Positions 5,041-31,276 are shown, numbered from the stretch's first letter. The stretch is 32,000 nucleotides of DNA from Pseudomonas aeruginosa (GCF_001457615.1 NZ_LN831024.1:3990001-4022000); one strand, 5' to 3'. Notes: generated from the letters alone by a model not told the origin. Translations and numbers: made by a program.

Positions 5041-5096
5041 CAAGATGATTAGGCCTGGAGGCACGAACCGTCCACCGCACCACTTCCAGCTTGCGC

Positions 5097-6320: not shown

Positions 6321-6341
6321 GGATGAAACCTCCCTATTCAT

Positions 6342-10813: not shown

Positions 10814-10909
10814 CAGGAAAGTTCCACTTGGTAGAAGTGCTGGATGCTCGGCTCATCGATGCGGGGCTGCCGCGGCAGGCATGTGCCTCCCCGGCCCCAG
10901 AGAAGCCGG

Positions 10910-11638: not shown

Positions 11639-11654
11639 AAGGGTTCTCCCGGTT

Positions 11655-13361
11655 CTACAAGACGTAGTGGAATCGCTCGGCAACGTCGCAGACTATGTTG
11701 GCAACCAGCTCCTGCTCGTCCGGCGCCAGCCCCTTGCTCCATGCCACAGGCTCGTCGAAAGGCAAGGGGCGGTTGTTTCGCAGAGCGGCCAAGGTCGTTT
11801 GCGGCGCCTCGACGAAGTCCTCGCAGCGCAACAACTGGACGTAATCCCCGGCGTCCTCCAGTTGCAGTGCCAGGTAACGCCACCACAGAGCACGCCGGAC
11901 AGCTAGGTGGTCGGTATCGGCAATGGCCAGCAGTGCCTTGCGCTGCCATCCCGTGAGGGCCAGGTCATCGGGACATCCGAACGGCTGGCGTTCGACGGCA
12001 GCCTGGCGCAGGTGCTCGAAGGTGTTCGCCCAGGAGTTCAGGGTGTCGTAGGGATGACGGATGGTTGCGATCAGCAACGCCGTCGGCATGACCTTGCGGA
12101 TCAGGGGCAGCCGGGCGATATAGGCAAGCGTGTTCTTCGTTCCCAGGTGAAACGAAGCCCCCCGCACCTCAGCGAAATAGTCGCTGGACTGATCGTTGCC
12201 CCTGGCAGTGTCGTCGACCAGGCGGCCATTCACATGCTTGTTCGGCACGGGCCTGCCCGCCAGGATGTCGCGACGTAACTCTGCGTAGTAGCGTGGCAGT
12301 CCCCAAGGAAGAGGCGAGAGTTTCAGCGCTTCGAATACCTGAGGAGGTTCATTGAGCACCACGGTGTCGGGCTGCTGGGAGAGCAGACGGCATAGATGGC
12401 TGGTTCCGCTCCGGGGAATCCCGGTGATCACCAGGTCCTGTCCGGCCTCGACAGTGCCGGTGGAATCACCTTCCGAGAAAGCCAGCCGAGGCGCAGGAGC
12501 CAGGATTGCTTTCTTCCAGTTGGCATCCAGCGCAAGCACTTCGCGCAGCTCAGGGAAACGCTTGGCCAGTTCGTCCAGTTCGGCCCATAGCGAACGCTCG
12601 CGGACAAGTGTGTCGAGAGAATGGTAGTGGCAGAAGAAGGGCGGTAGGGACGCAGCGGATAGCGGCTTGATATGAAGCGGATAATTGAACCGTTCGCTGA
12701 GCGCTCTCGTCTTGTAGTTCAACGCGTGCAGAGCGACGGGTAGCGTCAGCTGGTCCAGCCAGGGCATCTTGTTGGTGATCAGCGGGTCCGCATGGACGCG
12801 TTCGGCGAGCCTGTACCAGACTTCGGCGAAACGCCTGGCATCACGTACCAGGATAAAGCCAGCGTTATAGTACGCAGGCATCGCTTCCCCGGAACAAGTG
12901 GTCACTACCCGATCTCCAGGCAATGCCGATCCCGCATGGGCGTATATGCGTTGCCAGTAATCGTTCTGTTTTGCCACCAATGCCATATCGGCAGGTTTGA
13001 GTGCCGCGTCGAAACGACAAAGCATGTCAGCTTCGAATGCATCGACACAGATCATGTCACTGTCGAGAAACAACGTATGCCCAACAGCCGGCCCCAGCGC
13101 CAACGCCGCGAACTTGTTGCCTATTGGATACTCTGGCCCGAAAGGACTATCCATAGGCAAAAGAGGAATGCCCAAACGTTCATATAAGCGTCGGGATGCA
13201 TCGCTTGGCACACCCCAGTCAGCCTTTCCCGATGGACATGCGGCAATGATATCCATGGAAAAGCCAAAGCGTTTGCGTAGAGAAGCCGCCAACACGGCAG
13301 ACTTGATTTCCAACTCGCCGGCGTGGACGACGAATACCATGGTCAAAGACGATGACATCAT
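11655..13361 (-). CDS. bifunctional-looking protein: N-terminal GT8-like glycosyltransferase domain + C-terminal sulfotransferase domain (568 aa)
   Basis: The N-terminal domain (about 12480-13361) has the DxD motif LFLDSDMICV and a GT8-like YYNAGFILV. The C-terminal domain (about 11655-12479) has the 5'-PSB motif ITGIPRSGTSHLCRLL and the 3'-PB motif IATIRHPYDTLNSW. The ATG at 13361 overlaps the upstream stop (ATGA). Confidence 0.8.
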   Translation of the reverse strand: MMSSSLTMVFVVHAGELEIKSAVLAASLRKRFGFSMDIIAACPSGKADWGVPSDASRRLYERLGIPLLPMDSPFGPEYPIGNKFAALALGPAVGHTLFLDSDMICVDAFEADMLCRFDAALKPADMALVAKQNDYWQRIYAHAGSALPGDRVVTTCSGEAMPAYYNAGFILVRDARRFAEVWYRLAERVHADPLITNKMPWLDQLTLPVALHALNYKTRALSERFNYPLHIKPLSAASLPPFFCHYHSLDTLVRERSLWAELDELAKRFPELREVLALDANWKKAILAPAPRLAFSEGDSTGTVEAGQDLVITGIPRSGTSHLCRLLSQQPDTVVLNEPPQVFEALKLSPLPWGLPRYYAELRRDILAGRPVPNKHVNGRLVDDTARGNDQSSDYFAEVRGASFHLGTKNTLAYIARLPLIRKVMPTALLIATIRHPYDTLNSWANTFEHLRQAAVERQPFGCPDDLALTGWQRKALLAIADTDHLAVRRALWWRYLALQLEDAGDYVQLLRCEDFVEAPQTTLAALRNNRPLPFDEPVAWSKGLAPDEQELVANIVCDVAERFHYVL

Positions 13362-14635
13362 TGGGTAGCCCGGGTCTCGCAGCAGAACGAAACCGGCTCG
13401 AATGCCCCATGCAGATTCACCACTGCATCGAAGCACTTGGGCGAATTGAAGACCCTGAATATCGCCGCATTGACCTGTTTATCCATGAGTTCGCAAACGG
13501 ACTCCGACAAAGAGTTCTCCAGACGAAACGTCAAGGCGTATTCGCCGGCCTGCAAGTCGCAGTCGAAGCTGATGCGTATTCTCAAGCGCCCGTCAGGCTC
13601 GACATTCAAAGCCTTGCCCAGCAATAAATTGTTTATGCCATAGAGGTTGTAACCGCGCTGGTCACGGATAGTCAGGGTGATCTTTGGGTGCTCCGGGACG
13701 GGTAGGTCAAATTGCACAAGTACCTCGACCCAGACACGTTCGCCCGAATCGAAGTAATCCCGGGCTTCGTCAAGTACGCCCATGCGGATGGATAGAAACC
13801 TGCCCTGCCCATTTCCATATGCAATTACCGAGTTCCCGTGTTCGCCAGAAGCGATCAGGCTTCCTGAGCGGACTTCCGCCCGCTGTGTCTCTATACTGTC
13901 CCGCAGATAGAGTTCCGTGGCTGTTTCACAGTCGCCATCGAATATCACTCTACCTTTGGATAGATAGATCGCTCGACTACAGTAACTCTTGATCAACTGT
14001 ATATCGTGGGAGACCAGCAGGATGGTGATGCCTTTCAGCAGCAGTTCTTCAAGCCGGTTCAGGCATTTGAACTGAAACGCGGCGTCACCTACCGCCAGGG
14101 CCTCGTCCACGATCAGCACATCGGCATCGACATATGCCGCAATGGAGAAAGCCAAACGCACGAACATACCGCTCGAATATGTTCGAACCGGACGATCGAT
14201 GAACTCACCGATATCGGCAAACTGGATTATCTCGTCGAGGCGTTCAGAAATTTCCTGCTCGCCCAGTCCAAGAAGCATGGCATTGAAGATTATGTTTTCC
14301 CTGCCGGTGTACTCCATGTTGAAACCGGCCCCCAGCTCCAACAGTGCCGCTACCCTTTCTGGGCGAACCACCTGCCCACTCGTAGGTCGCAAGGTACCCG
14401 CAAGTATCTGCAGCAAGGTGGACTTCCCGGAGCCGTTGCAGCCGATTACTCCAACCACCTCCCCAGGAAAAACCTGGAAACTCACATTCCGCAGAGCCCA
14501 GAATTCCGAATAAAACTTCTTTCTCTCACCCCAGATGGCCTGCAACATCCTTTGATGAGGAGCCCTGTAGACTCTAAAACCCTTGCTTATATCTACGGCC
14601 GCAAGTACCGGCGCATTACCATTCATACAACTCAC
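13358..14635 (-). CDS. Wzt/TagH-type polysaccharide-export ABC transporter ATP-binding protein with C-terminal Wzt_C-like beta-sandwich domain (425 aa)
   Basis: Walker A is GCNGSGKSTLL, the signature motif is YSSGMFVRLAF, Walker B is LIVDEALAVGD, and the H-loop is LVSHD. About 175 extra C-terminal residues (about 13361-13888) show the pattern of Wzt carbohydrate-binding domains. The start is GTG at 14635, with an alternative ATG at 14626. Confidence 0.9.
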   Translation of the reverse strand: MSCMNGNAPVLAAVDISKGFRVYRAPHQRMLQAIWGERKKFYSEFWALRNVSFQVFPGEVVGVIGCNGSGKSTLLQILAGTLRPTSGQVVRPERVAALLELGAGFNMEYTGRENIIFNAMLLGLGEQEISERLDEIIQFADIGEFIDRPVRTYSSGMFVRLAFSIAAYVDADVLIVDEALAVGDAAFQFKCLNRLEELLLKGITILLVSHDIQLIKSYCSRAIYLSKGRVIFDGDCETATELYLRDSIETQRAEVRSGSLIASGEHGNSVIAYGNGQGRFLSIRMGVLDEARDYFDSGERVWVEVLVQFDLPVPEHPKITLTIRDQRGYNLYGINNLLLGKALNVEPDGRLRIRISFDCDLQAGEYALTFRLENSLSESVCELMDKQVNAAIFRVFNSPKCFDAVVNLHGAFEPVSFCCETRATQ

Positions 14636-14645
14636 AGCGAGATCC

Positions 14646-15797
14646 CTACAACGCAGAAAGCATCGTATTGTTTATCCTGAAAACGTCATAGCGCTGTTCC
14701 GCCAACGATCTACTGGCTTCTCCCATACGTGCGATGAGCGAAGGCGACTCGATGAACTTCAACATTGCCGCGGCTAAACTCTGCGGACTCTTGATCGGTA
14801 CCAGAAACCCATTGACACCATCCAGTACCGTTTCACGACATCCCGTCCAGTCAGTCGTTATCACAGGCTTCCCCAGGGACATGGCCTCCTGACTACTTCT
14901 CGGCACACCTTCTCTATAATAGGATGGCAGCACGAATACACTCGTATTGGCCACCCATGCCTTGATGTCATGCACATGGCCAGGCCACTCCAACAAGCCT
15001 TCGACTACCCACTGGTTCATTTCCTCCCGTGACACCCTTCCTGGATTACTGTCGACGCCTCCCAAGACCAGAAAACGCGCGAGCGGACTGCGTTTTCTAA
15101 CGATTCTCGCGGCTTCCACAAAATCATAGATACCTTTCTCCTTGAGAAGACGAGCGACAAACACGAAAGTAATAGGCCGCAACACGGGAGAACTCGCGGC
15201 AAAATAATCAAGATCGACGCCTATACCCGGCAATATCAAGGCACGTCCCGTCTTGGCCAGCCGAGGGCTCACAAACAGATCGTAGTCATCCTGGTTGAGC
15301 AGAAATACACGAGACGAGAACCGAAGGACCAACCTGATCGAACAGGTCACGACATGCCTAAGCAGCTTCCGTAGAAAATGGGTATAGCCTTCTTCCGAAT
15401 AGATGAAACCAGCGCCTTCGATCATCGAATAGCGTAATCTGACACCCGTCAAAAAAGCCGCGATACCACCGTAGATAACGGGCTTTATAAAGTAACTGAA
15501 CACGGCATCGATCTTCAGCGCCCGCAGCTTGCAGATCAGACTCAGGAGTGCGTGCAACTCCTGAAAGGGATTCATGCCCGCACGTTTCAAGCTGTAGGAA
15601 ACCGGAATTGCTCCAAGCTCCGAAACTTGACGGCTTGTCACCTCGTCATAGTCTGGAGCGAAAGCGTAGACCTTCGCTCCTCGACGTACGACCTCTCGAA
15701 TGAAATCGCCACGAAAATTGTAGATTGAAAAAGCCTGATTGGAGATCAGCGCAAGGTTGCTAAAAGGCAACCCATCGACAACAGCGGCGTGATTCAT
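14646..15797 (-). CDS. GT4-family glycosyltransferase (383 aa)
   Basis: The E-x7-E region reads LPSYYREGVPRSSQEAMSLGKPVITTDWTGCRETV. The ATG at 15797 overlaps the galE stop (ATGA at 15794-15797). The 527-aa ORF-track version runs back through galE and is not credible. Confidence 0.85.
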   Translation of the reverse strand: MNHAAVVDGLPFSNLALISNQAFSIYNFRGDFIREVVRRGAKVYAFAPDYDEVTSRQVSELGAIPVSYSLKRAGMNPFQELHALLSLICKLRALKIDAVFSYFIKPVIYGGIAAFLTGVRLRYSMIEGAGFIYSEEGYTHFLRKLLRHVVTCSIRLVLRFSSRVFLLNQDDYDLFVSPRLAKTGRALILPGIGVDLDYFAASSPVLRPITFVFVARLLKEKGIYDFVEAARIVRKRSPLARFLVLGGVDSNPGRVSREEMNQWVVEGLLEWPGHVHDIKAWVANTSVFVLPSYYREGVPRSSQEAMSLGKPVITTDWTGCRETVLDGVNGFLVPIKSPQSLAAAMLKFIESPSLIARMGEASRSLAEQRYDVFRINNTMLSAL

Positions 15798-16807
15798 GAA
15801 TACCCACTCGGATTGGAAACCTGCCAGCGCCAGGCATCCGCAATCATGCATTCGAGGCCCAGCCCCGCCTTCCAGCCCAACTCTCGCTCCGCCTTGGAAA
15901 CATCCGCCCAGCACTCGGCCACATCGCCTGGGCGGCGACCGGACACCGTAAAGGGAATGCGCCTGCCAGAGACTCGCTCGAAAGCTTCGATGACCTGCAA
16001 GACCGAATAGCCGGTGCCCGTCCCAAGATTCCAGACGTGGTAGCCGTGCCCCTGCCCCAGGTATTCGAGCGCCTTGGTATGTCCTGCTGCCAGGTCGCAA
16101 ACATGGATGTAGTCCCGGACTCCCGTCCCGTCGATAGTCGGATAGTCGCCGCCATGTACCGTCAACCGACTCAAACGTCCGACTGCAACCTGGGCGATAT
16201 AGGGCAGAAGATTGTTTGGGGTACCGCATGGGTCCTCACCGATGAGGCCGCTTTCATGAGCACCGATGGGATTGAAGTATCTGAGCACCGCGATGGACCA
16301 ACGCGCATCGGAGCGAGCCAGGTCATCGAGCATGTGCTCGGCAGTCAGTTTTGTCCGGCCATAGGGACTGGCCACGCCTCCCACTTTCGAACTCTCGGAT
16401 ATAGGCAAGGTGCCAGGCATCTGATAGATCGTTGCGGAAGAACTGAAGACAATCTTGAATACCCCGACCCTCTGCATGGCGCGTAGCAGCGAAATAGCTC
16501 CCTGAACGTTGCTCTCGTAATACTCCAGCGGGTCATCAACGCTTTCTCCAACAGCTTTCAACCCTGCCAGATGAATGACCGCATCAACCTTCTCATCGAT
16601 CAGCAGGCGCTCAACAAGAAGACTGTCTCTAACATCTCCCAGTACGAAGCCAACCGAATGCCCGGTTATTCTTTCCACTCGCTTTAGAGATTCCGAAGAA
16701 CCGTTGACAAGATTATCCAGAACCACAACCTTGGCGCCTTGGCCTAAGAGTTCGACCAACACATGAGAGCCAATGAATCCTGCACCTCCTGTGACCAATA
16801 CGCGCAT
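15794..16807 (-). CDS. galE: UDP-glucose (or UDP-GlcNAc) 4-epimerase
   Basis: The Rossmann motif is MRVLVTGGAGFIGSH, followed by FSSSATIY and the catalytic YGRTK (YxxxK). The full length of 337 aa is typical of GalE. GC is markedly low for this genome. Confidence 0.9.
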   Translation of the reverse strand: MRVLVTGGAGFIGSHVLVELLGQGAKVVVLDNLVNGSSESLKRVERITGHSVGFVLGDVRDSLLVERLLIDEKVDAVIHLAGLKAVGESVDDPLEYYESNVQGAISLLRAMQRVGVFKIVFSSSATIYQMPGTLPISESSKVGGVASPYGRTKLTAEHMLDDLARSDARWSIAVLRYFNPIGAHESGLIGEDPCGTPNNLLPYIAQVAVGRLSRLTVHGGDYPTIDGTGVRDYIHVCDLAAGHTKALEYLGQGHGYHVWNLGTGTGYSVLQVIEAFERVSGRRIPFTVSGRRPGDVAECWADVSKAERELGWKAGLGLECMIADAWRWQVSNPSGYS

Positions 16808-16904
16808 CTCGCCTCACCTTGATACGTACAGAGCTGGGTTTTCAGGGGTAAGAACTCCCATCGAGCCCGTCTGTAACGCACTCTCTTTCTACTTACCCAG
16901 TGGA

Positions 16905-16935
16905 AAAGGAGGCGATCGAGAAGATCGCCTCCTTT
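16905..16935 (-). terminator. perfect 13-bp stem / 5-nt loop hairpin between the 601-aa protein gene and galE
   Basis: aaaggaggcgatc (16905-16917) pairs with gatcgcctccttt (16923-16935). On the minus-strand transcript the 3' arm ends in UUU followed by U. It starts 20 nt after the TAA at 16955-16957. Confidence 0.6.
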
Positions 16936-16954
16936 GGCCTGCAGCTAAAGTGAC

Positions 16955-18760
16955 TTAGTTGCGGTTGTTACCAGCCTTGTGGTTCTCCGAGGTGGACGAG
17001 CCATCTTCGTTGAAGTTGCCTTGGGTGGTGGAGGTCATGTTGGTGATGGTGCCATTGGCAGAGCGGATCAGGCCGAGCGCCTCGCAAGTTGGGAACTCGC
17101 CTTCCAGGACCAGACGTGCGCGACCGTTGGCACCGTTCCAGTTGGTACCGTCGATACCGAAGGCCTTGGCTACTTCGGTTACGGTGTACACACCGGTTTC
17201 GTGCGCTTTCAGGGCAGTCTTCCCACTCGAGTCGGTCAGGTAGGTGCTGCCAGTCGCCGGATAACGCTTACCGTTCTGGTCGAACAGTACCCCGCGCACC
17301 TTGCCGTCCCGACCATCGTCGCTGGTGTTGGTCAGACGAATGAAGAACTGGTCGGAAACATTGGAGCCAGGCAGATTGAACAGACTGGCGACGCAACTGT
17401 TCTTCCAGAACTCGTCGAGACGGTTGCCTGCAATGGTACGGTCGACATAGCGTACGTTCTCGAAGTCGACCTTCAGATCACCCACGTCGAAACGTTGCAG
17501 CGCCTGCATCGGCACGGTGCCGGAAGCCTTCACGCAGACGTTGTAGGTCTGGTTGATATTCGAGTTGTCGAACGATACCGGCAAAGTACCGTTGCCCTGC
17601 GCATCCACTACACCTTCGATGGCGGCAGAATTCCAGAGCTTGGCGGCAGACCCCGGATTGGCGGCAAAGGCGGAGCAGTTCCCGGTGGTCAGGCCGATGT
17701 CGCTGATCCCGTTGAAGTTACCCGACAGGGTGCTGGTCACCTTGTCGCCACCGGCGAAACCAAACACGGTTCGACCCGCCTCGTTGAGCACATCCGTATT
17801 GATGCCGAGCCGTACGGCGCCCAGACGCGCATAGTTGGCACCATAATAATCGGTGTTATCGCCACCGACGGACACCGAGGTATCGAAGGAGCGATCCTGA
17901 TTGTTCAGGTTCAACGGATGCAGGACGCGATTCTGCCCATACTGGTTGGTGTTGAGAACGTCCCAGTAAACCGCGGGCAGCGAAGTGAAAATGGTCAGGG
18001 GCGGTGCAGAGTCGTTATTCGCAGGGTTGCCGGCATCGGCGCCAGTGGTGGTATCGAACTGTGCGGAAACCGTGACCTGGAAACGCAATTCGTTCAGCGG
18101 GTCGTTTTGCAGGCTCACTTTCGGATTCCAGGATCCAGCCACGAAGGTGGCATCGCCCTGAAGCGGAGCGCGCATGTTGGTGACCTTGGCAGGCTGGCTG
18201 TCCTGGCTGCTCGGCTCGCGGAAGTTGAAGAACACCACGTTGCCGCCGGTCGCGGTCTGCTTGATCATGTCGGCACCCGCCTGGTCGAGGCGCAGCTCAA
18301 GCGTGTTGTCGGTGGCGCCAGTGCCGCTGGTGATGACGAAGCCGCTACCCGCAGCCAGGGCGCCGATCTTGATCTGGTTGGCGGTCACGGCCTTGGCGAA
18401 GCGCACGACGGTACGACCAAGGGTCAGCTTGATGGTGTGGCCCGCAGCGGCATTTCCAGCCTTCACTGGATCGATGGTGTAGGTAACGCTGGGCAGGTCA
18501 AAGGTAGTTTCTTCGGACTTGTTGCCGAAAATCTCCTGAGCCAGGGTGATGTTGGCCGCCTTGCTATCGAGGTTGGCACCATTTTCCACACTCTTGCCGA
18601 CGACATAGTTGGCCTGTCCTGGTCCGTACTGCTCGGTTGCACCAGGCGAGTTCGCCTCCAGAGTGGGGCTTGTGGCAATAGCAACCACTCCGGCAGCGTT
18701 CGCGACTCCAGCAAACAGTGCCGAAGCTACAGCGGCGCTGAGTAGTGTTCTTTTGAGCAT
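16955..18760 (-). CDS. secreted or surface protein of unknown function, 601 aa, Sec signal peptide, Gly/Asn/Thr/Ser/Ala-rich
   Basis: The ATG at 18760 is preceded by AAGGAG. The signal peptide is MLKRTLLSAAVASALFAGVANA|AG. There are no further hydrophobic segments and only four Cys, and alternating polar/hydrophobic runs suggest a beta-rich fold. Many CGT, GGT, ACC and AAC codons are visible. The ORF-track start at 18895 adds 45 implausible residues. Its position fits PA1383. Confidence 0.8.
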   Translation of the reverse strand: MLKRTLLSAAVASALFAGVANAAGVVAIATSPTLEANSPGATEQYGPGQANYVVGKSVENGANLDSKAANITLAQEIFGNKSEETTFDLPSVTYTIDPVKAGNAAAGHTIKLTLGRTVVRFAKAVTANQIKIGALAAGSGFVITSGTGATDNTLELRLDQAGADMIKQTATGGNVVFFNFREPSSQDSQPAKVTNMRAPLQGDATFVAGSWNPKVSLQNDPLNELRFQVTVSAQFDTTTGADAGNPANNDSAPPLTIFTSLPAVYWDVLNTNQYGQNRVLHPLNLNNQDRSFDTSVSVGGDNTDYYGANYARLGAVRLGINTDVLNEAGRTVFGFAGGDKVTSTLSGNFNGISDIGLTTGNCSAFAANPGSAAKLWNSAAIEGVVDAQGNGTLPVSFDNSNINQTYNVCVKASGTVPMQALQRFDVGDLKVDFENVRYVDRTIAGNRLDEFWKNSCVASLFNLPGSNVSDQFFIRLTNTSDDGRDGKVRGVLFDQNGKRYPATGSTYLTDSSGKTALKAHETGVYTVTEVAKAFGIDGTNWNGANGRARLVLEGEFPTCEALGLIRSANGTITNMTSTTQGNFNEDGSSTSENHKAGNNRN

Positions 18761-18964
18761 GAGAAAATAACTCCTTGAAGCGTTTATATTGAGCATTCCA
18801 GTCAAGTGTCCATCTTTGGACGACACGCTAATGATCATGTATCGGTAATCAACCAACACATCGACAGGCCTGACACCATGAATACTTCCAATCATTCCGG
18901 TGATACCGATCGAATTGACGCCCAGCCACTACCTGAAGTGGCCACATAGGCACCAACGGATGGC

Positions 18965-18993
18965 TTTATATAATTGCCAAAGCACCTCAGCAA
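18965..18993 (-). promoter_or_regulatory. candidate sigma70-type promoter for the 601-aa protein gene (TTGCTG-N17-TATAAA)
   Basis: On the minus strand the -35 TTGCTG (+ strand 18988-18993) and the -10 TATAAA (+ strand 18965-18970) are separated by a 17-nt spacer. This would give a ~200-nt leader. It is a pattern match in AT-rich DNA only. Confidence 0.25.
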
Positions 18994-19278
18994 TAGCAAA
19001 AAGTGCGTTTTCACCTCTTCCTATTTAATAAATGAATTTTCCTACGGAAGAAGGTAAAAACAAAAACCTTAAAATAGAGAAAATTCTTAAGAATATCCAA
19101 GCGATCACGAACAAACGTTTCTAAAAACCGGGTCACACCCAGAAGTAAAAGGCTACTTCTGAGCATTTAGAAAGAAGATTCGCAATAGATTTTTATGGAT
19201 GGATACGGCCCGGAAAGTTCCAGGCCTATCGGGGACCACGACGAGAGTCGTCTAGATGAGTGTTGCAGGTGACCGACC

Positions 19279-21558
19279 TCATTCCATACGGCAGGCGCCC
19301 GGTCTATCGGAGCAGGCCAGTGTCTTGCTCAGCATGGCGCGCAGCTTTTCCGTCACTTCCCTGGCATCGGCATCACTTTCCAGCACGTAAGGCTGGATCA
19401 ACATGATGACTTCTTCACGGGTCTTCACGGCTTTCTGGCGTCCGAAGAGGAAACCGATCCCGGGAATGTCCTTCAGGAGAGGCACGCCAGCGTTGGAGTC
19501 CGTTATGTTGTCCCGAATCAGCCCCCCCATCAGCACCGACCCACCGCTTTTCAACGTAAGCGATGTTTCCAGCGACGTCCTGGAAATCTCCGGAGCGCTG
19601 ATTCCTCCGCCACTGGCCTTGCCACCGCCGCCGGAAGAACCGCCACTGTCGCTCAACTCCTGGCTGACCGTAAGATCGACCCGACTATCCGAGTAGACTA
19701 CGGGGGCGACATTCAGAATTGTGCCGGTAGAGCGGTAGGCAATTTCATTGCGCAGGTTGGTGCTTCCAGCAGTGGTGCTGTCGTCATTGACCTGGGCCGT
19801 TGGGATAGGAATATCCCGACCGACATTGATGTTGGCCTGCTCGCCGCTCTTGACCAAGATACGGGGAGTGGCGAGTACCCGGACTCGTTGATTGTCCGCC
19901 ATTGCCTGGATGGCTGCGGTATTGCCTCCGGCGGTGTTGATGACGTAGTTGAAGCCTCCTTTCCCGGCGCTGCCCTTGCTTCCGGTCGAGGTCGCGCTAT
20001 TGAAACTGCCGTTGAGCATCTCCCACTCCACGCCCAACTCCTGGGTGTCGCTGAGACTTACGCTGGCCACCGTCACCTCGATCAATACCTGGCGGGCCGG
20101 CTTGTCCATTTCCCGGAGCAAGCCCTGCATCTGCTGCCAGGTACGCGCCGCTCCTCGGAACAAGATGGCGTTTCGATTCTCGTCCTCCACTATGGTGCCG
20201 CTGCCGCTGATACCGGCCGCCAAGCCACCGAGCAAACCGTTAGCACCGTCGCCCCCCACCAACGCTGCGGCACCTGCGGCTTGCAGCAAGGGAGCCACCG
20301 CCGGTGCCGCACCATCGTCTCCGGCGCGCCTGCCACCGCCAGATCGCTTGGAAGCGCTGCTTTGCAGTCCGGAGGTGATCCCGTAGGCCCCCTCCCCGGC
20401 GAACCCCGATACCAATGCCCGCAACGACTTGGCCAGTTCGGTGACACGGGTATTGCGAGCTTCGTAGAAGAACAGTCCTTCCTTCTCCTCGCCGATACCT
20501 GCGGCAACCGCCATCGGAGCCCTGTCGACCTGCTGCGCCCACTCGCGCACCAAGTCGAGAAGTTGGCCATCGTTGGCGAAGACGATGAGGCCATTGGAAC
20601 TTTCCAGCGGTACCAGCATTATGCTGCCGACCGCTTCGCCGATACCGACGCTGTAGCCTTGCGCCGCAATCACGCTCTTGAGTTGACTGGCCATGTCGGC
20701 AGCACTGACGAAGGCCGGGTCGATACGCAGGCTGTGACGTCCACGCATGAAAGGTTGATCGAGAAGGCGGACGGCTTCGGTGGCCTGGTTGACGATGGAA
20801 GACATGCCCTTGAGCATCAAGCCACTCCGCGCACCATCGGCCATCACGCTCAGGCCGGATTTTTCGTAGGCACTGTTCAACCAGGGAATCACATCCTTGG
20901 GGTCGACGCTGTGCAACGCCACGAATTGAAATACCGGCCGATAGGCAATCGGCACACTAGGCCGTGCTTCGCCACTGATGAGAATGGGCGGCTCGTCCGG
21001 GCTGAGCCCTACCTGCTTGATCTGGAAGCGATAGATATCGCCTTGGTGGAGTATCTCCACGCCGTAGTTGACGAGCACCTGGCGCGCGACTTCGTAGACC
21101 ATCTGTGCAGTCTGCGGCTGTTCCAAACGAACGGTCACGCGATCAGTCTTTTCCTTCAGAGCGCTTTCGATCTCAAACGGCAAACCGAGGATGTTGCCGA
21201 ATACCTCGTTGATGAATGCGGCAAGCTGCACGTCCTCCACGTTCAGACTGATGTCAGCCTTCTTGTCGTCGAGGATCGCCTTGTCCATTCGATCGACTAC
21301 ACCGCCTACGATCGACCGAGGCGATGTGGGCGTGCCACTGAACTCCGTCTTCGGAACAGCCAACGATGCCGGAGCTTTCTTTCCGTCGTCGCTCACCAGG
21401 GCTACGCCCTCGGTTGCCTTGGCTTTTTCCGACTTCGCGAGCAATGGTTCGGGAAACTGCAATGGGGAAGTACTGCAACCTGCCAATAGGGCCAGACAGA
21501 CGACAATGGACAACGGGTGGCGCAAGAAGGCAAAGCTCGGCCTATGGCAAGGGTGCAT
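19279..21558 (-). CDS. secretin (GspD/PulD family) with lipoprotein signal peptide (liposecretin), 759 aa
   Basis: The N-terminus MHPCHRPSFAFLRHPLSIVVCLALLAG|CST contains a lipobox. An N0-like domain reads ISLNVEDVQLAAFINEVFGNILGLPFEI. The C-terminal secretin domain shows VLIEVTVASVSLSDTQELGVEW, VRVLATPRILVKSGEQANINVG and GGLIRDN...GVPLLKDIPGIGFLFG. I prefer the ATG at 21558; an alternative is at 21591. Confidence 0.9.
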   Translation of the reverse strand: MHPCHRPSFAFLRHPLSIVVCLALLAGCSTSPLQFPEPLLAKSEKAKATEGVALVSDDGKKAPASLAVPKTEFSGTPTSPRSIVGGVVDRMDKAILDDKKADISLNVEDVQLAAFINEVFGNILGLPFEIESALKEKTDRVTVRLEQPQTAQMVYEVARQVLVNYGVEILHQGDIYRFQIKQVGLSPDEPPILISGEARPSVPIAYRPVFQFVALHSVDPKDVIPWLNSAYEKSGLSVMADGARSGLMLKGMSSIVNQATEAVRLLDQPFMRGRHSLRIDPAFVSAADMASQLKSVIAAQGYSVGIGEAVGSIMLVPLESSNGLIVFANDGQLLDLVREWAQQVDRAPMAVAAGIGEEKEGLFFYEARNTRVTELAKSLRALVSGFAGEGAYGITSGLQSSASKRSGGGRRAGDDGAAPAVAPLLQAAGAAALVGGDGANGLLGGLAAGISGSGTIVEDENRNAILFRGAARTWQQMQGLLREMDKPARQVLIEVTVASVSLSDTQELGVEWEMLNGSFNSATSTGSKGSAGKGGFNYVINTAGGNTAAIQAMADNQRVRVLATPRILVKSGEQANINVGRDIPIPTAQVNDDSTTAGSTNLRNEIAYRSTGTILNVAPVVYSDSRVDLTVSQELSDSGGSSGGGGKASGGGISAPEISRTSLETSLTLKSGGSVLMGGLIRDNITDSNAGVPLLKDIPGIGFLFGRQKAVKTREEVIMLIQPYVLESDADAREVTEKLRAMLSKTLACSDRPGACRME

Positions 21559-22033
21559 ACAGTTTCCTTTCAAAACCCTGGGTGTTCCCATCCTGCGAGA
21601 ACGAGAAGCGGATTCCTTGTTCAGTGATGCTCTCCAGACGCTCGCCGCCAGGCAGAGTGGCGCCCGCCGCAAAACGCCGCAGAGGCCCCTCGGCGCTTTT
21701 GGCAACAAGGGCGAAGATGCCGCCTTCATCGCGGACAATGCCGCGTAGCAGCCAATCGACCTTGATTAGCGCCACTCCATCCACGCCCACCGAAACCCGC
21801 TTCGATTCAGCTTCGCGCTCCTCGTCCACGGTTCTCCCCCACCACGACATTCCAGCCAACTTGCCGGCAACCGTCGTATCAACCGCAACGGACGGAACTT
21901 CCGCCAGAACCCACTTCCGGGCTTCAGGAGTGGGCAAGGCGGAAAGATCGGCACTCGGAGCAAAGACAAGTCCGGCAAAGATGGAAGCGACCAGAAGCAG
22001 AAGATTCCAGCGAGCAAAGGCATGAGGCGTCAT
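21542..22033 (-). CDS. single-pass membrane protein with GspC-HR/PilP-like C-terminal domain (163 aa)
   Basis: The N-terminal anchor is WNLLLLVASIFAGLVFA. The C-terminal stretch WLLRGIVRDEGGIFALVAKSAEGPLRRFAAGATLPGGERLESITEQGIRFSF fits the l.L.Gi....g..A.i......r....G..lpGG..l..I....v.l pattern of secretin-binding HR domains. It overlaps the secretin start by 17 nt. Codons ending in T are frequent, which is atypical for this genome. Confidence 0.55.
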   Translation of the reverse strand: MTPHAFARWNLLLLVASIFAGLVFAPSADLSALPTPEARKWVLAEVPSVAVDTTVAGKLAGMSWWGRTVDEEREAESKRVSVGVDGVALIKVDWLLRGIVRDEGGIFALVAKSAEGPLRRFAAGATLPGGERLESITEQGIRFSFSQDGNTQGFERKLYAPLP

Positions 22034-22393
22034 TGGGTTTGCAAATGGCAGGATGGAAAGCGATGAGTTGAAGATGCGGGAAGTGTGGCATTTATAGAAA
22101 ATTGAAAATCCTGAGTTAGAAGTAAGAAAACTCCCAACTTACAAGTCGTAAAACCCAATCATTTCGAGACTCCATCGCCAAGCACGCAAGGACCCGACCA
22201 TTACGGCAGGCGGCACCGGATGGATAGGCAAACAGTGCAGTCGGTACGGGTAACGGCTTGCACACCCCGCGCAGGATTCGCGTCACTCGGCCAGGACTGT
22301 CACTGCACCGAGACGCCAACAGCGGCAATGCAACCGACATTCACCTAGCGAACTCGGCCAAGAGCAGGAAGGCGAACCGACTCCACGCTCGCC

Positions 22394-23359
22394 CTAATGC
22401 GACGACACGTACTCCGCCTCCCCCTGCGCCGGCGGCAGCGAGAACCCCGCGCGCAGGCGCCGGGCTTCTGCCAGCGGCGAGCGGCCGAACAGACGCTTGA
22501 ATTCGCGGTTGAACTGCGAAGCGCTGGCGTAACCGACCGCATGGCAGGCGGCCTGGGCGCTCATGCCCTGGCGCACCATCAGCAGACGCGCCTGATGCAG
22601 GCGTATGCACTTCAGGTACTGCATCGGCGAGGTCTGGGTGATCGCCTTGAAGTGGCTGTGGAACGACGGCACGCTCATCCCCGCCTCGCCCGCCAGTTGC
22701 GCCAGCTCGAGCGGCTCGGCGTATTGCGCGTGGATGCGGCGCAGCGCCCGGGCAATGTTGCCGAAGCGCCCGCGCATGGCCAGTGCCGCGCGCATGGCGC
22801 CGCCCTGAGGGCCGGTGAGCACGCGGAAGTACAGCTCGCGCAGTAGTGCAGGCGCGAGGATCGCTGTCTCCAGCGGATCGCCCAGCGCCTCCAGGAAGCG
22901 CAACACCGATGCCCGCAGCGGCGCGTCCATAGAGCTGGACATCAGACTGCGCGGCGCTTCGACCTGCGCAAGCGCGCGCTGACGGTCGATCTCCACCGCC
23001 AGCCCGGCCGCCAGCGGGAAATCCAGGTGCAGGTAGATCGCCAGCAGCGGTCGCTCTGGCGTGGCATCGGTCTCCATGGTGAACGGCACCGGCACCGCCA
23101 CGGCCAGGTAGTGCTGCTCGTCGTACAGGTAGATCTGCTCGCCGAAATAGCCGCGCTTTCGCCCCTGGCAAACGATGACGATCCCCGGATCGTAGAGCAC
23201 CGGAGTCCGCGCCAGCGGACGATCCGAACGCAGCAGACGGACGCTGTCGAGCCCGGTGAGGTTGTAGCCCTCCCGGGGCGCCAGGTTTTCGAGCAACGCG
23301 ACCATGCGCTGTCGGTCGACGGAGCGGATGGCTTCTGAATCAGGCAGTGATGCGCTCAT
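22394..23359 (-). CDS. AraC-family transcriptional regulator (AraC_N-type N-terminal domain)
   Basis: The C-terminal double HTH reads LAGEAGMSVPSFHSHFKAITQTSPMQYLKCIRLHQARLLM...VGYASASQFNREFKRLFG. I prefer the ATG at 23359. The ORF-track ATG at 23428 would leave only 22 nt to the divergent gene. Confidence 0.8.
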   Translation of the reverse strand: MSASLPDSEAIRSVDRQRMVALLENLAPREGYNLTGLDSVRLLRSDRPLARTPVLYDPGIVIVCQGRKRGYFGEQIYLYDEQHYLAVAVPVPFTMETDATPERPLLAIYLHLDFPLAAGLAVEIDRQRALAQVEAPRSLMSSSMDAPLRASVLRFLEALGDPLETAILAPALLRELYFRVLTGPQGGAMRAALAMRGRFGNIARALRRIHAQYAEPLELAQLAGEAGMSVPSFHSHFKAITQTSPMQYLKCIRLHQARLLMVRQGMSAQAACHAVGYASASQFNREFKRLFGRSPLAEARRLRAGFSLPPAQGEAEYVSSH

Positions 23360-23450
23360 AGAATCAGGCAATGAAACGAGAAATTCCGGTCTCTGAGATA
23401 GGGAAATTTCTGCGTATTGTGCACTCATTCCCCCGTAACGGAGTCACACC

Positions 23451-24284
23451 ATGTCGTTTCGCAAGACCCTGTTGATCACCGGCGCCAGCAGCGGCTTCGG
23501 CCAGGCCCTGGCCCGCGAGGCCCTGAATTCCGGTCACCGCGTGGTGGGCACGGTGCGCAGCGAGGAGGCCAGGAGCGCACTGGAAGCCGTGGCGCCGGGC
23601 CAAGCCTTCGGCCGGCTGCTGGACGTCACCGACCTTGCCGCCATCGAGCCGACGGTCGCAGCCATCGAGCGCGACATCGGTCCGCTGGACGTGCTGGTGA
23701 ACAGTGCCGGCTATGGTCATGAAGGCATCCTCGAGGAGTCGCCGCTGGCCGAGATGCGCCGGCAGTTCGAGGTCAACCTGTTCGGCGCGGTCGCGATGAT
23801 CCAGGCCGTGCTGCCCTACATGCGTCGGCGCCGCCGCGGTCATATCCTCAACATCACTTCCATGGGCGGCTACATCACCATGCCCGGCATCGCCTACTAC
23901 TGCGGCAGCAAGTTCGCCCTGGAAGGGCTTTCCGAAGCCTTGGGCAAGGAGGTAGCCAGCCTCGGCATCGCCGTCACCGCCGTGGCCCCCGGCTCCTTCC
24001 GCACCGACTGGGCCGGCCGTTCGATGGTCCGCAGCCCGCGCACCATCGCCGACTACGACGCGCTCTTCGACCCGGTCCGCCAGGCTCGCCAGGAAAAGAG
24101 CGGCAAGCAACCGGGCGACCCGCGCAAGGCCGCGCGCGCCATGCTCCAGGCCATCGAGGCGGAAAACCCGCCGGCGCACCTGCTGCTGGGCAGCGATGCA
24201 CTGGGGCTGGTGCGGCAGAAGCTGAAGGCGCTGGAGGAGGAAATCGCGGCGTGGGAAGAGGTCACGCGGTCGACGGATGGATGA
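23451..24284 (+). CDS. short-chain dehydrogenase/reductase (SDR)
   Basis: Motifs are LLITGASSGFGQALA, VNSAGYG and the catalytic YYCGSKFAL (YxxxK). An ACGGAG Shine-Dalgarno lies upstream. Confidence 0.9.
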   Translation: MSFRKTLLITGASSGFGQALAREALNSGHRVVGTVRSEEARSALEAVAPGQAFGRLLDVTDLAAIEPTVAAIERDIGPLDVLVNSAGYGHEGILEESPLAEMRRQFEVNLFGAVAMIQAVLPYMRRRRRGHILNITSMGGYITMPGIAYYCGSKFALEGLSEALGKEVASLGIAVTAVAPGSFRTDWAGRSMVRSPRTIADYDALFDPVRQARQEKSGKQPGDPRKAARAMLQAIEAENPPAHLLLGSDALGLVRQKLKALEEEIAAWEEVTRSTDG

Positions 24285-24302
24285 GGTTTGGAAAGTCGTA
24301 GA

Positions 24303-24368
24303 CGGATAATTCCACGGCATTATCCGCCGATACCGCGCCGAACCGGCGGATAACCGCACTGCGGTTAT
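24303..24368. terminator. two short hairpins between convergent genes (possible bidirectional terminators)
   Basis: cggataat (24303-24310) pairs with attatccg (24319-24326), and ataaccgc (24350-24357) pairs with gcggttat (24361-24368). There are no clear U-tracts. Confidence 0.3.
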
Positions 24369-24373
24369 TCACC

Positions 24374-24736
24374 CTACGCCATGGCCAGGTTGCTGGCCCG
24401 CTCCGACAACGGACAGCCCTTTTCCTGCAAGTACCGAATCGCCTGCCGTGCCGTGGCGGGATTCATCGTATTGCCGATGAAGGTCGTCAGCGAGTCGGTG
24501 AACTCCAGCACGATGTTCTCGGTGTAGTGCCATTTCCGGTAGTCCACCCGGGAAATGCTGGAATACGGCTTCGAGCGCGTGCGGATGACGCGGAACTCGA
24601 CACGGTCCGCATGCAGGACCAGCCGCGGGGACAGGTCGCTGTGGGCCCAGCATAGCCAGGGAATGCCTTTCCAGCCGGCGAACGCGGCGACCAGGCGCAC
24701 GTTCAGGCCGCTGTCCGTCGCAGGATCCTTCGTCAC
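24374..24736 (-). CDS. hypothetical protein (about 120 aa)
   Basis: GC3 bias is strong in this frame. I propose the GTG start at 24736, preceded by GGAGG. The ORF-track ATG at 24946 overlaps the upstream GNAT gene. I recognise no domain. Confidence 0.5.
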
Positions 24737-24878
24737 GCGCCCTCGCCTCCCAGATAACAGCCGCGCTGCTTGTCCACTGTCACCGTATGCCCGAAGCCCA
24801 GGACGAACCTGTCGTGGAACGGAAGCCCGGCGAGCCAGGAGGTCGCGCCGGTCCGCAGCCTCTCGTCGCGCCCGCCCC

Positions 24879-25421
24879 TCACTCTCCCACCCGCCCCTCG
24901 ACCCTCCGCAAGCGCGCCATGCTGTACACGTCCACGAAGCGCCCATCCCGCACCGCGTATTCGCGCATCTCTCCTTCGGTCTCGAAGCCGAACTTGCGAT
25001 ACAGCGCCAGCGCCGGGGCGTTGTCGGTGTAGACGGTGAGTTCGACGCGGCGCAGGTTCATCCAGTTGTCGGCGATGTCCAGCAGTTCGCCGAGCAGGCG
25101 GCTGCCGACGCCCTTGCCCTGCCAGGCGACGGCGACACCCATGCCGATGCTGCCGCTGTGGCTGCGGCGGATGCGCGGGTGCTGTTCGAGGCTGGCGCTG
25201 CCGATGACGTCCCCCTGGTGCAAGGCGACGAGGATCAGCAGGCGGTCGTCGTCCACGCTGTCGTGCAGGCGCTTGCGGCGCTGCTCCACCGACTGGAAGG
25301 GCATCTGCAGGACCTGGCGGGCCACGGCGGGGTCGTTGTACAGGGCGGTGAGGCCTTCCACGTGGCGTTCGCTGTAGCGTTCGAGGCGGATCGTCGGCGA
25401 TTCGGCGGTCATTGCGGTCAT
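24879..25421 (-). CDS. GNAT-family N-acetyltransferase (180 aa)
   Basis: Motif A reads [19 protein letters not shown]. The length and beta-alpha pattern are typical of GNATs, and the protein ends ...[12 protein letters not shown]. Confidence 0.85.
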
Positions 25422-25547
25422 CCCTGGGCTGTCTGGCCACCCAGCATAAGCGTCTGCGCCGGGCTCGACCAGCCGGTCGGAGATCGCGCTTTCCCTGCCG
25501 CGCGGCTCTGGCTAAGCTCGACCTTCGAACAACGAAAGGACGCCAGC

Positions 25548-27281
25548 ATGGTCCAGAGCGCCCCAGCCAGCGAAATCGCCGCCCTCATCCTGCGCGGTTT
25601 CGACGATTACCGAGAGCAGTTCCGCGAGATCACCGACGGCGCCCGTGCCCGCTTCGAGCAGGCGCAGTGGCAGGAAGCGCAGCGCGCCTCGGCGCAGCGG
25701 ATCAACCTCTACGAGGAAAAGGTCGCCGAGACGGTGGCCGGGCTGCGCGCGGGGCTGGCCGACAGCGAGCTGCTGGACGTGGAGCGCTGGCCGATCATCA
25801 AGAGCGCCTACATCGCGCAGATCGACCTGCGGCTGGACGACGAGCTGGCCGAGACCTGGTTCAACTCGATCTTCTGCGGGCTGTTCAGCCACGACAACAT
25901 CAGCGACGGCACGATGTTCGTGCACACCACCCGGCCCTCGCTGCGCGTCCACGCCCGCGCGCCCTACACCCGCACCTACCGGCCAGGCGGCGACCTGCGC
26001 CAGGCGCTGGAGAAGATCTTCGACGACTACCGCTTCGACGTGCCCTACGACGACCGCGAGCGCGACCTCGAACGGATCGACGCACTGCTGCACAGCAACC
26101 TGCCGGACTGGGTGTGCAAGGACCCGGACCTGGCCATCGAGCTGATCGGCTCGGTGTTCTATCGCAACAAGGGCGCCTACCTGGTGGGCCGCCTGTTCAC
26201 CCCGGACGAGCAGTGGCCGCTGGTGTTCCCGCTGCTGCACCGCGAGGGCCACGGCATCCAGTTCGACACGGTGATCACCGACGAAGCGGAAGTCTCGATC
26301 ATCTTCTCCTTCACCCGCTCCTACTTCATGGTCGACGTGCCGGTGCCGGCCGAGCTGGTGGCCTTCCTCAAGCGCCTGCTGCCGGGCAAGCACCTGGCCG
26401 AGCTGTACACCTCGATCGGCTTCTACAAGCAGGGCAAGAGCGAGTTCTACCGCGCCCTGATCAACCACCTGGCGACCACCGACGACCGCTTCGTCATGGC
26501 CCCCGGGGTGCGCGGCATGGTGATGAGCGTGTTCACCCTGCCCGGCTTCAACACGGTGTTCAAGATCATCAAGGACCGCTTCAACCCGTCGAAGAGCGTC
26601 GACCACGCCACGGTGATCCAGAAGTACCAGTTGGTGAAGAACCACGACCGGGTCGGACGCCTGGCTGACACCCAGCAGTTCGCCGACTTCCGCTTCCCGG
26701 TGAGCAAGTTCGAGCCGGAGTGCCTGGCCGAACTGCTGGAAGTGGCGCCGTCGACGGTGGTGATGGAAGGCGACGTGGTGCTGATCCGCCACTGCTGGAC
26801 CGAGCGGCGCATGACCCCGCTGAACATCTACCTGGAGAACGCCAGCGAGGCACAGACCCGCGAGGCGCTGAACGACTACGGGCTGGCGATCAAGCAACTG
26901 GCGGCGGCGAACATCTTCCCCGGCGACATGCTGCTGAAGAACTTCGGCGTGACCCGCCATGGCCGGGTGGTGTTCTACGACTACGACGAGATCTGCTACC
27001 TCACCGAGGTGAACTTCCGCTACATCCCCGAGCCGCGCTTCCCCGAGGACGAGATGTCGTCCGAGCCCTGGTATTCGGTGGGGCCCAACGATGTGTTCCC
27101 GGAAGAATTCCCGCGCTTCCTGTTCGTCGACCTCAACCAGCGCCGGCTATTCGCCAAGCTGCACGGCAACCTCTACGACGCCAAATACTGGCAGGGCCTG
27201 CAGGAGCAGATCCGCGAGGGCAAGGTGATCGACGTGTTTCCCTATCGGCGGCAGGAGACGCCCGAGCAGTTGCTCGGGTAG
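25548..27281 (+). CDS. aceK: isocitrate dehydrogenase kinase/phosphatase
   Basis: I recognise the N-terminus [29 protein letters not shown] and the full-length 577-aa AceK architecture, ending ...[10 protein letters not shown]...[15 protein letters not shown]. The ORF-track start at 24555 is a spurious 5' extension through two minus-strand genes. Confidence 0.95.
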
Positions 27282-30556: not shown

Positions 30557-31276
30557 GGTGGGCGACCCCTCTGCCAGTCGTTCCTGAGCACGCTGGCGGA
30601 GGGGAAGCCACTCATGTCGCATTGCCCCAGAGCGTGTGGGTTTTCCTATGCTGTAACTGCGTCGTGATGGTCTAGGCGCGATCTGGATTCGTGGGGCAAT
30701 TGCTTGTGGAGTGGGCGTTCAATGACCGCTTTCGGCCAAGAGCGGACTTACCCTTTCGTTTAGATTGATCTGCCCAGCAGGGAGTCAGTAAGGAAATGGA
30801 ATGATCGAAGGCCGCTGAACTGATCTTGCTTACTCAATCATGATGGCCATCGCCCTTGGACTTTATGTCAGTGCAAGCGGTGTAGTGCAGCGTGCTCTCG
30901 TGGGGAGCGTGACGAGCCAGCGTTAGCTGTCCTCCACGAGAAGCGGCTAGGGCTCGGAAGCTGCCGTTCGACCAAAGAAGACGAACTACCTAACAGAGTT
31001 TGCACCATGAGTTGCCCTCGGCAATGATCGGCAGGCTCTCGGGTCGAATAGCCGACCCAGATGTTTACCAGACTTAAGAGAGACGATACGGTAAACTCTC
31101 ATGGGCGGGTGTAAGTCTGGTCTTTCCGTTAGTGCTGGCGGAACCCTTTCGGGCTCTATCGTGAGATGCTGTCATGCCTTTGGTAGCTGATTATTATCGC
31201 GCTAGCGCTGTGAAATTCTCACTTTTTGAATACTTATGTTCTGCCAAGAAAAAACATTAAAAAATGGAAGCGTCCA

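Follow-up and report, generated by a model that had tools for sequence, protein, structure and literature searches.

We have analyzed a 32-kb stretch of Pseudomonas aeruginosa DNA (the window), apparently the PAO1-type region from aceK to PA1396, and its overlapping genes PA1381 and PA1382 (xqhB), which encode a short GspC and a predicted liposecretin. Rather than a stand-alone module, this pair is the last part of an E-F-G-H-I-J-K-L-M-C-D type II secretion system (T2SS) operon that is headed by wzm and contiguous in sister species; the wzm and E-to-M half very probably sits at the "incomplete" hpl locus (PA2669 to PA2678). We consider it likely that PA1381/PA1382 and Hpl are partners in one split, Sps-like third T2SS that exports PA1383, the product of the gene next to the secretin. 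Our direct observations cover the gene identities, the fold, the synteny, and the break point, together with the presence of an intact other half and of purifying selection. Two loose ends of the PAO1 annotation, the "incomplete" Hpl cluster and the orphan PA1382 with the unannotated PA1381, appear to be halves of one machine, and the value of the finding is that it unites these orphan loci of a model pathogen in a single machine open to testing. If the partnership is real, P. aeruginosa gains a third complete T2SS, together with a sulfated-glycan pathway associated with it and, in PA1383, a named candidate substrate.

PA1381 is a short GspC and PA1382 a predicted liposecretin

The gene for the short GspC (PA1381 type, 163 amino acids [aa]) was called as an open reading frame (ORF) at positions 21542 to 22033 on the minus strand, and that for the secretin (759 aa) at 19279 to 21558 on the same strand. 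The end of the C-like gene overlaps the beginning of the secretin gene by 17 nucleotides (nt) (21542 to 21558), consistent with translational coupling, and the overlap was identical in every Pseudomonas orthologue examined (loci L001, L005, L008, and L011).

PA1381 has a single hydrophobic segment (residues 5 to 33) and a bitopic topology. Its AlphaFold2 (AF2) model comprises a transmembrane helix (residues 3 to 24), a low-confidence linker, and a beta domain (residues 80 to 157) with predicted local distance difference test (pLDDT) scores of 87 to 97. The chain ends about 6 residues past this homology region (HR) domain; therefore, there is no PDZ domain and no coiled coil. The window protein matched the Pfam T2SSC model (PF11356) with an E value of 0.009 and 16.3 bits, below the 27-bit gathering score, and the same model was matched by 12 of the 22 aligned family members (best E value, 2.8e-10). 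In a profile search, the top and sole meaningful PDB match was the Legionella GspC protein LspC (7oio). The first eleven Foldseek matches of the PA1381 model were PilP structures (2y4x/2y4y) and LspC (probability of 1.00, except 0.87 for LspC; TM-target up to 0.69; root mean square deviation of 2.2 Å), and GspB was also among the top matches. No NCBIfam model matched PA1381.

The PA1381 family is tiny, with 13 clusters in a set of 5.8 billion proteins and, by profile search, 28 representatives among 1.84 billion proteins, nearly all of 150 to 200 aa. Its distant members, from Pseudomonadales and Parabeggiatoa metagenome-assembled genomes, are annotated merely as "hypothetical protein," and a scan of genome contigs with the C-like alignment found no relative; the source genome is seemingly not within that contig set. 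We conclude that PA1381 is a short, divergent GspC with an HR/PilP-fold domain and an XphA-like or Orf2-like architecture, an assignment that would give a function (short GspC) to "Orf2"-type hypothetical proteins encoded upstream of S-layer (surface layer) secretins.

The longest ORF for the secretin opens at a TTG codon at position 21738 (819 aa); the ATG at 21558, which is the start in all orthologues, gives 759 aa. From this ATG, the N terminus reads MHPCHRPSFAFLRHPLSIVVCLALLAG followed by the lipobox cysteine, beginning MHPCHRP and carrying the lipobox LLAG-C. Pfam identified the secretin domain (PF00263; 3.3e-43) at the C-terminal end and Secretin_N (PF03958; 7.3e-26) in three stretches, with a Gly/Ala-rich insert accompanying these three repeats. 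The N0 domain (PF21305) was matched weakly (E value of 0.0016; 18.7 bits versus a 27-bit cutoff) and is a precomputed match in several orthologues of about 60% identity. The best NCBIfam model was the GspD equivalog TIGR02517, with 254.8 bits, below its cutoff of 351.35, and the best PDB sequence matches were, all of them, T2SS GspD proteins. Judged by sequence, PA1382 is a member of a divergent GspD-like lineage and not the canonical equivalog.

Orthologues of PA1382 carry the lipoboxes ILGG-C, LSSG-C, LLGG-C, and VLSS-C. The lipobox is not a chance match, because every orthologue keeps its cysteine, even a remote one whose secretin identity is 34%; the remote relatives come from Alteromonas-like and Thiotrichaceae organisms. 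The assignment of PA1382 to the liposecretin type, with predicted lipidation, is supported by these comparisons. An earlier note on this DNA had described the 163-aa ORF, the lipobox secretin, the 17-nt overlap, and the adjacent 601-aa protein, all of which are present, and its proposals of a bitopic, GspC-like protein and a liposecretin-type GspD relative were borne out by the T2SSC, LspC, Pfam, NCBIfam, and PDB matches and the conserved cysteine.

The gene pair closes a complete T2SS operon in related loci

Two PA1381-family members from outside P. aeruginosa (64% and 48% identical) were examined for gene context. In both cases, the order is wzm (ABC-2 permease), gspE, gspF, gspG, three or four prepilin-type genes, K-, L-, and M-sized genes, and the C-like gene, followed on the 3' side by the secretin, a 597- to 601-aa protein, galE, a GT4 glycosyltransferase (GT), wzt, and a sulfotransferase. 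The predicted sizes at the complete locus L001 are 575 aa for E, 395 for F, and 144 for G, then 145, 142, 196, 357, 331, and 199, with 164 for the C-like protein, 756 for D, and 601 for the cargo protein; the K and M genes of the complete loci gave weak matches to T2SSK and T2SSM_b.

The block E-F-G-H-I-J-K-L-M-C-D-cargo-galE-GT-wzt is contiguous in P. citronellolis, P. delhiensis, P. jinjuensis, and three metagenomic relatives, and P. schmalbachii has F-M-C-D-cargo. The DNA fetched begins within gspE for the first three species and within gspF for P. schmalbachii, the position of wzm being outside the view in all four; wzm precedes gspE in L001/L002, L004, and L023. Two remote gammaproteobacterial loci have a full T2SS set (E to M, C, and D) with cargo proteins that are 27 to 30% identical, and one of the remote loci (L009) is rearranged to L-M-C-D-cargo-DsbA-sulfotransferase-E-F-G-H-I-J-K. 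The M-C-D order was found in the Pseudomonas orthologues examined, and a scan based on the cargo protein returned 6 species only. Compared with L001, the window genes are 64 to 86% identical, the cargo gene being the highest in the block (86%), and the glycan part of the island keeps the gene order of the complete loci over the whole extent of the fetched DNA.

Where the earlier note saw a minimal pair lacking cognate partners, the relatives show the end of an E-to-M-C-D operon. Its suggestion that the pair is dedicated to the adjacent 601-aa protein is very probably correct, since the C-D-cargo order is kept even where the cargo protein is only about 28% identical.

A single break in the gspM-gspC spacer

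The spacer between the M gene and the C-like gene of L001 is 141 nt long. Homology between the window and L001 begins at L001 position 10022, equivalent to window position 22012, and nothing upstream aligns; no remnant of the upstream wzm or gspE-to-gspM genes was found in the window. A conserved motif, TGGGA-N-TTCC...TTTTCAAT, lies at 22101 to 22136 on the minus strand, about 105 nt ahead of the C-like ATG, and alignments showed it to be common to L001, L005, L008, and both P. aeruginosa alleles. It is a probable internal promoter/operator of the C-D unit; a consensus promoter scan flagged no sigma-70 site at the motif. The same motif is found 29 nt past the M stop codon of L001, at which point the window becomes alignable to the spacer. 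Spacer homology begins at the motif; therefore, the chromosomal break lies just upstream, no more than about 29 nt past the M stop codon of the ancestor, and the C-D unit retained its own upstream region.

No match to the spacer was found downstream of the hpl M gene. One cut within about 30 nt explains both junctions, because the motif stayed with C-D and the hpl M gene has no spacer downstream. A search for repeats or DNA shared by the two junctions, as a clue to the rearrangement, returned chance-level matches of 9 to 17 nt only.

We propose that a single ancestral island carried wzm, gspE-F-G-H-I-J-K-L-M, gspC, gspD, a gene for a 600-aa cargo protein, galE, a glycosyltransferase gene, and wzt, followed by genes for sulfotransferases and additional glycosyltransferases. 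A single break in the ~140-nt gspM-gspC spacer, in the P. aeruginosa lineage, would have produced two loci, with C-D, its control region, the cargo gene, and the glycan genes staying together (PA1381 to PA1393) and wzm with E to M now at hpl (PA2678 to PA2669). The locus illustrates how a multigene machine can outlast breakage of the chromosome if transcription units are left whole on either side of the cut.

The other half of the system

No gene for GspE, GspF, GspG to GspK, GspL, or GspM, for a pseudopilin, or for Wzm was found in the 32-kb window by tblastn with the complete orthologous set and by Pfam searches of the remaining ORFs. The earlier note's statement that cognate machinery is missing therefore holds for the window but not beyond it, since the genes are contiguous in sister species and an intact wzm-E-to-M block was found on two long contigs, L019 (814 kb) and L020, in a metagenome scan with this family's GspF. 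These contigs are 99.2% identical to each other, with 66% GC, and their proteins share 80% (wzm), 83% (E), 81% (F), 84% (G), 60% (H), 70% (I), 66% (J), 71% (K), 68% (L), and 67% (M) identity with those of L001. C, D, the cargo gene, galE, GT, and wzt are all absent from the block. Domain scans of the block, whose wzm lies at 7461 to 8279 on L019, found ABC2_membrane, T2SSE, T2SSF, T2SSG, and three other pseudopilins with the N_methyl domain, of which one matched T2SSJ, as well as T2SSM_b above the cutoff. All ORFs are intact in both contigs, and the pooled ratio of nonsynonymous to synonymous polymorphism (pN/pS) was 0.17. Given L019 and L020, a reading of the C-D locus as truncated by deletion was rejected in favor of a split.

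The block on L019 is flanked by a gene of the MvaT/MvaU family, a NorR-type regulator gene (FhpR) divergent from that for the nitric oxide-inducible flavohemoprotein Fhp, a quinone reductase gene, and a Ser/Thr dehydratase gene. In PAO1, PA2678 is wzm (PMC6954232), PA2677 and PA2676 are HplR and HplS (PMC8619066), and PA2665 (fhpR) is divergent from PA2664 (fhp) (PMC8070244); the twelve genes between wzm and fhpR in L019 correspond one for one to PA2677 to PA2666. Because the flanks, the gene count, and the published tags fit, L019/L020 were identified as the hpl locus, PA2678 to PA2669. Furthermore, L004 is more distant from L001 than either half is, and the divergence of the hpl genes mirrors that of the window genes, as expected if one ancestral island had been cut in two.

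A paper linking PA1381/PA1382 with hpl was not found in the openly searchable literature (subscription literature was outside the search), and a literature search for "orphan secretin" gave no result. The MvaT/MvaU-family silencer gene, at 16386 to 16748 on the minus strand of L019, lies two genes from the hpl half and is taken to be mvaU (PA2667).

P. aeruginosa has an orphan GspC-GspD couple, XphA/XqhA (PA1867/PA1868), which lacks a cognate platform and works with Xcp. The earlier note had suggested by analogy that PA1381/PA1382 plugs into Xcp, and a hybrid of this kind, in which the pair docks on the inner membrane platform of Xcp (or Hxc) and redirects it to PA1383, would fit the encoding of C-D apart from platform genes, the purifying selection on C-D, and this same-species precedent; the fast evolution of the transmembrane/linker part of PA1381 (omega of 0.70) might likewise fit adaptation to a new partner. 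However, the intact, codiverged block of ancestral partners on P. aeruginosa-like contigs makes an Xcp plug-in unnecessary, GspC-platform contacts are usually system specific, and the data give no indication of a link to Xcp or Hxc. We therefore regard a hybrid machine as unlikely and the split system with Hpl as the better account of the pair.

PA1383 and the glycan genes

The probable dedicated cargo, PA1383, is a 601-aa signal peptide protein encoded at 16955 to 18760 on the minus strand; a cargo gene lies directly 3' of the secretin gene in all related loci that have the pair. PA1383 has a Sec signal peptide cleaved after ANA, which leaves a mature protein of 579 aa (61 kDa; pI 5.0) that is rich in A, G, N, and T and has four Cys residues. 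Its AF2 model is beta-rich and multidomain (pLDDT of 68), and no NCBIfam model matched it. Transcription, translation, and mass-spectrometric detection of PA1383 have been described (PMC8850804, which also cites its reported repression by MvaT/MvaU and NrdR), and it is present in a surface-shaving proteome (PMC8959810). It is probably a surface-associated structural protein.

Residues 24 to 70 and 575 to 601 of PA1383 are strongly conserved yet disordered in the AF2 model, and in the C-terminal tail, ...NMTSTTQGNFN...AGNNRN, the last five residues are nearly invariant. These termini could be anchoring, glycosylation, or secretion signals. A 588-aa ORF at 16979 to 18745 on the plus strand, antisense to PA1383 and almost wholly inside it, corresponds to the published olg2, which is reported to be transcribed, translated, and under purifying selection (PMC8850804).

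The glycan synthesis part of the island (4450 to 16807, on both strands) encodes a galE-like epimerase, GT4 and GT2 glycosyltransferases, Sulfotransfer_3 proteins, Wzt, and CysC. Domain scans placed the Wzt-type ATP-binding cassette (ABC) ATPase with its Wzt_C carbohydrate-binding domain (PA1386) at 13358 to 14626 on the minus strand, cysC (adenosine 5'-phosphosulfate kinase) at 4450 to 5040 on the plus strand, and the two Sulfotransfer_3 proteins at 5097 to 6341 and 11655 to 13436 on the minus strand. Together, galE, GT4, GT2, Sulfotransfer_3, cysC, and Wzt/Wzt_C specify an ABC transporter-dependent, O-polysaccharide-like glycan that is probably sulfated. Since the Wzm partner of this Wzt travels with the hpl half (PA2678), the glycan exporter is split across the same two loci as the T2SS. 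The sulfate may, speculatively, be a chain-terminating cap, comparable to the WbdD/Wzt system of Escherichia coli O9a.

Domain scans found no outer membrane polysaccharide export (OPX) or porin gene in the island, and the earlier note had considered the secretin as a conduit for the glycan itself. Wzm/Wzt O-polysaccharide pathways proceed through WaaL and Lpt and require no OPX protein; the missing gene is therefore not an anomaly, and that proposal started from a false one and is unsupported. We know of no secretin that conducts a polysaccharide. Filamentous phages also use secretins, and a PA1382 transposon mutant was more phage sensitive in one screen (bioRxiv 2025.04.03.646983); both points speak for a role other than PA1383 export. 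In every complete locus, however, the secretin belongs to a canonical pseudopilus-containing T2SS with the cargo gene directly after it, and service to a substrate other than PA1383, be it the glycan or glycoconjugate of the locus or a filamentous phage, is most improbable.

Proposed assembly and function

In the split T2SS that we propose, the lipidated secretin would reach the outer membrane by the Lol route with no pilotin. The HR domain of PA1381 would dock onto the secretin N0 domain and its transmembrane/linker part would engage HplL/M-like platform proteins, and the Hpl ATPase and pseudopilins would then push the folded, Sec-exported PA1383 through the secretin. By analogy with VapA of Aeromonas, PA1383 may be tied to the sulfated O-polysaccharide-like glycan, which would be exported by Wzm (PA2678) and Wzt (PA1386).

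It is only a tentative and somewhat doubtful extension that a complete but split, normally silenced third T2SS (hpl PA2669 to PA2677 with PA1381/PA1382) exports PA1383 as an S-layer-like coat tethered to sulfated O-polysaccharide by way of the split Wzm (PA2678)/Wzt (PA1386) exporter. Such a coat, if real, would be an unrecognized surface structure in an intensively studied pathogen and might affect the access of phages and of the immune system.

Selection in the split state and contrary evidence

A divergent P. aeruginosa allele (L010 to L012) has a layout identical to that of the window (aceK...AraC-C-D-cargo) and the same junction. Ratios of nonsynonymous to synonymous substitution rates (dN/dS), calculated by the Nei-Gojobori method between the window and this allele, were 0.057 for PA1382 (86 synonymous and 17 nonsynonymous differences), 0.036 for PA1383, 0.067 for wzt, 0.076 for GT, and 0.061 for the flanking core gene aceK. 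Within PA1381, the ratio was 0.16 for the HR domain versus 0.70 for the transmembrane/linker part. Purifying selection has acted in the split state.

These values bear on the view that the pair is a decaying relic, that is, a nonfunctional leftover of a rearranged island whose erasure is incomplete. The rearrangement did cut the pair off from its operon, C, D, and wzt have a longer branch in P. aeruginosa, truncated or frameshifted alleles occur in some strains and a split cargo gene in one, xqhB is in a list of genes mutated in five cystic fibrosis isolates (bioRxiv 2021.12.21.470774), and the cargo gene is reportedly repressed by MvaT/MvaU (cited in PMC8850804). Decay is nevertheless hard to reconcile with the dN/dS of the secretin and cargo genes between alleles that share the junction, with a PA1382 that is full length in a cluster of 1,249 sequences versus about 26 truncated entries, with the conservation of the 17-nt overlap and the upstream motif, with the transcription and translation of PA1383 and its detection by mass spectrometry (PMC8850804), and with the phage sensitivity phenotype of the PA1382 mutant (bioRxiv 2025.04.03.646983). 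A relic is thus a very unlikely explanation, and a maintained, split T2SS remains the reading that we prefer.

Several observations weigh against that reading. The dN/dS of the whole of PA1381 was 0.36. The synonymous rate (dS) climbs along the region (13358 to 27281, compared with L011), from 0.025 for aceK through 0.10 for AraC, 0.17 for the secretin, 0.24 for galE, and 0.33 for GT to 0.44 for wzt, which points to allelic lineages of some age or to recombination and resembles O-antigen-type allelic diversity or exchange with diverged donors; part of the constraint could therefore have acted in other genetic backgrounds. The alleles could have diverged partly through recombination with complete-system donors, in which case the dN/dS argument would lose force. 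For C, D, and wzt, the P. aeruginosa branch exceeds the sister branch in length (1.1-fold to 2.3-fold, depending on the outgroup), which is compatible with some relaxed constraint; for C, the P. aeruginosa/L001 ratio was 2.3 with L005 as the outgroup and 1.3 with L008, and this relative-rate test, being outgroup dependent, was not relied on. A minority of entries have a frameshifted, shortened, or fused PA1381 (P0008, P0010, P0012, and P0013), and truncated PA1382 entries of 455 and 438 aa exist (P0098 and P0100). In GCA_028331285.1 (L010, 12814 to 14609), the cargo gene was called as two ORFs of 353 and 217 aa and is probably disrupted, with the C-like gene and the secretin gene intact.

Other such points concern the Hpl half and the cargo. 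The hpl K gene matched T2SSK weakly and the L-sized hpl gene had no Pfam match. L019 and L020 were placed in P. aeruginosa by their flanks, GC content, and locus tag arithmetic and not by a whole-genome match, with the MvaT/MvaU-family gene taken as mvaU (PA2667). The structural matches of the PA1383 model were generic tandem immunoglobulin-like surface proteins only, with no specific match, and P. aeruginosa is not, to our knowledge, an organism that forms an S-layer. Metapseudomonas resinovorans DSM 21078 (L013) and Pseudomonas sp. strain BN415 (L007) have the cargo gene (80 to 82% identical to PA1383) and glycan genes, but neither C nor D nor any further gene of a T2SS lies within 10 kb; the cargo protein may not strictly need this machine, or these genomes may be split too. 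Finally, the physical partnership with Hpl, the status of PA1383 as its substrate, and the surface layer and glycan link are inferences.

Other features of the window

The island has a low GC content and no multitransmembrane ORF. As with the secretin, the longest ORFs of two further genes run past the conserved starts, giving 527 versus 383 aa for GT (14646 to 16229) and 646 versus 601 aa for the cargo protein (16955 to 18895); the 527-aa version of GT would overlap galE by about 430 nt. A consensus promoter and terminator scan gave counts at or below the shuffled expectation, and the operon boundaries were therefore inferred from conservation. In the same scan, a terminator-like hairpin at 19128 to 19142 on the minus strand, about 140 nt past the secretin stop, may end the C-D transcript, although the evidence is weak. 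At the far end of the window, GC content falls to 0.47 at 31001 to 32000, beside a GNAT acetyltransferase ORF (31226 to 31750), possibly where a further acquired segment has its boundary.

Comparison with known systems

Of the systems described so far, the Sps/VapA system of Aeromonas comes closest. Its S-layer cluster, nested in the Wzm/Wzt O-antigen cluster, has the order wzm, spsE-F-G-H-I-J-K-L-M, a 166-aa "hypothetical" Orf2, spsD (743 aa), vapA, and wzt (PMC4413209, PMC4483657). In A. hydrophila AH-1, the sizes are 551 aa for E, 399 for F, 144 for G, 123 for H, 139 for I, 201 for J, 340 for K, 252 for L, 198 for M, 166 for Orf2, and 743 for D (PMC4413209, PMC4483657); compared by order and size, the cluster matches the complete Pseudomonas island nearly one for one. 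Orf2 occupies the place of the C-like protein, and the gene for the S-layer protein (VapA/AhsA) lies immediately past the secretin gene, as the cargo gene does here. Unlike the Aeromonas proteins of about 470 aa, the Pseudomonas cargo has 601 aa, and a lattice formed by it is hypothetical; the Pseudomonas glycan genes include sulfotransferases and cysC, and the P. aeruginosa system is spread over two chromosomal loci. Likewise, in the marine gammaproteobacterium Pseudoalteromonas, the gene for the surface layer protein Slr4 lies immediately downstream of a conserved, dedicated T2SS operon (PMC7821379), and Slr4 is likened to PA1383 by gene position alone, as a surface protein encoded 3' of a dedicated T2SS.

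Within P. aeruginosa, PA1381/PA1382 resembles XphA/XqhA in pairing a short GspC without a PDZ domain or coiled coil with a secretin, away from platform genes. Unlike that couple, it has an ancestral cognate platform (hpl), a secretin of predicted lipoprotein type, and an adjacent dedicated cargo gene. PA1382 also resembles HxcQ of the P. aeruginosa Hxc T2SS in its N-terminal lipobox, which implies, as a prediction, Lol-dependent self-piloting; unlike HxcQ, it comes from another T2SS lineage. The dispersal of T2SS genes, with C and/or D apart from E to M, is reminiscent of the Legionella lsp genes, and LspC is the best-matching solved GspC. Unlike the lsp arrangement, the split of PA1381/PA1382 from its platform genes is recent and traceable to a single spacer, and contiguous versions of the system survive in sister species.

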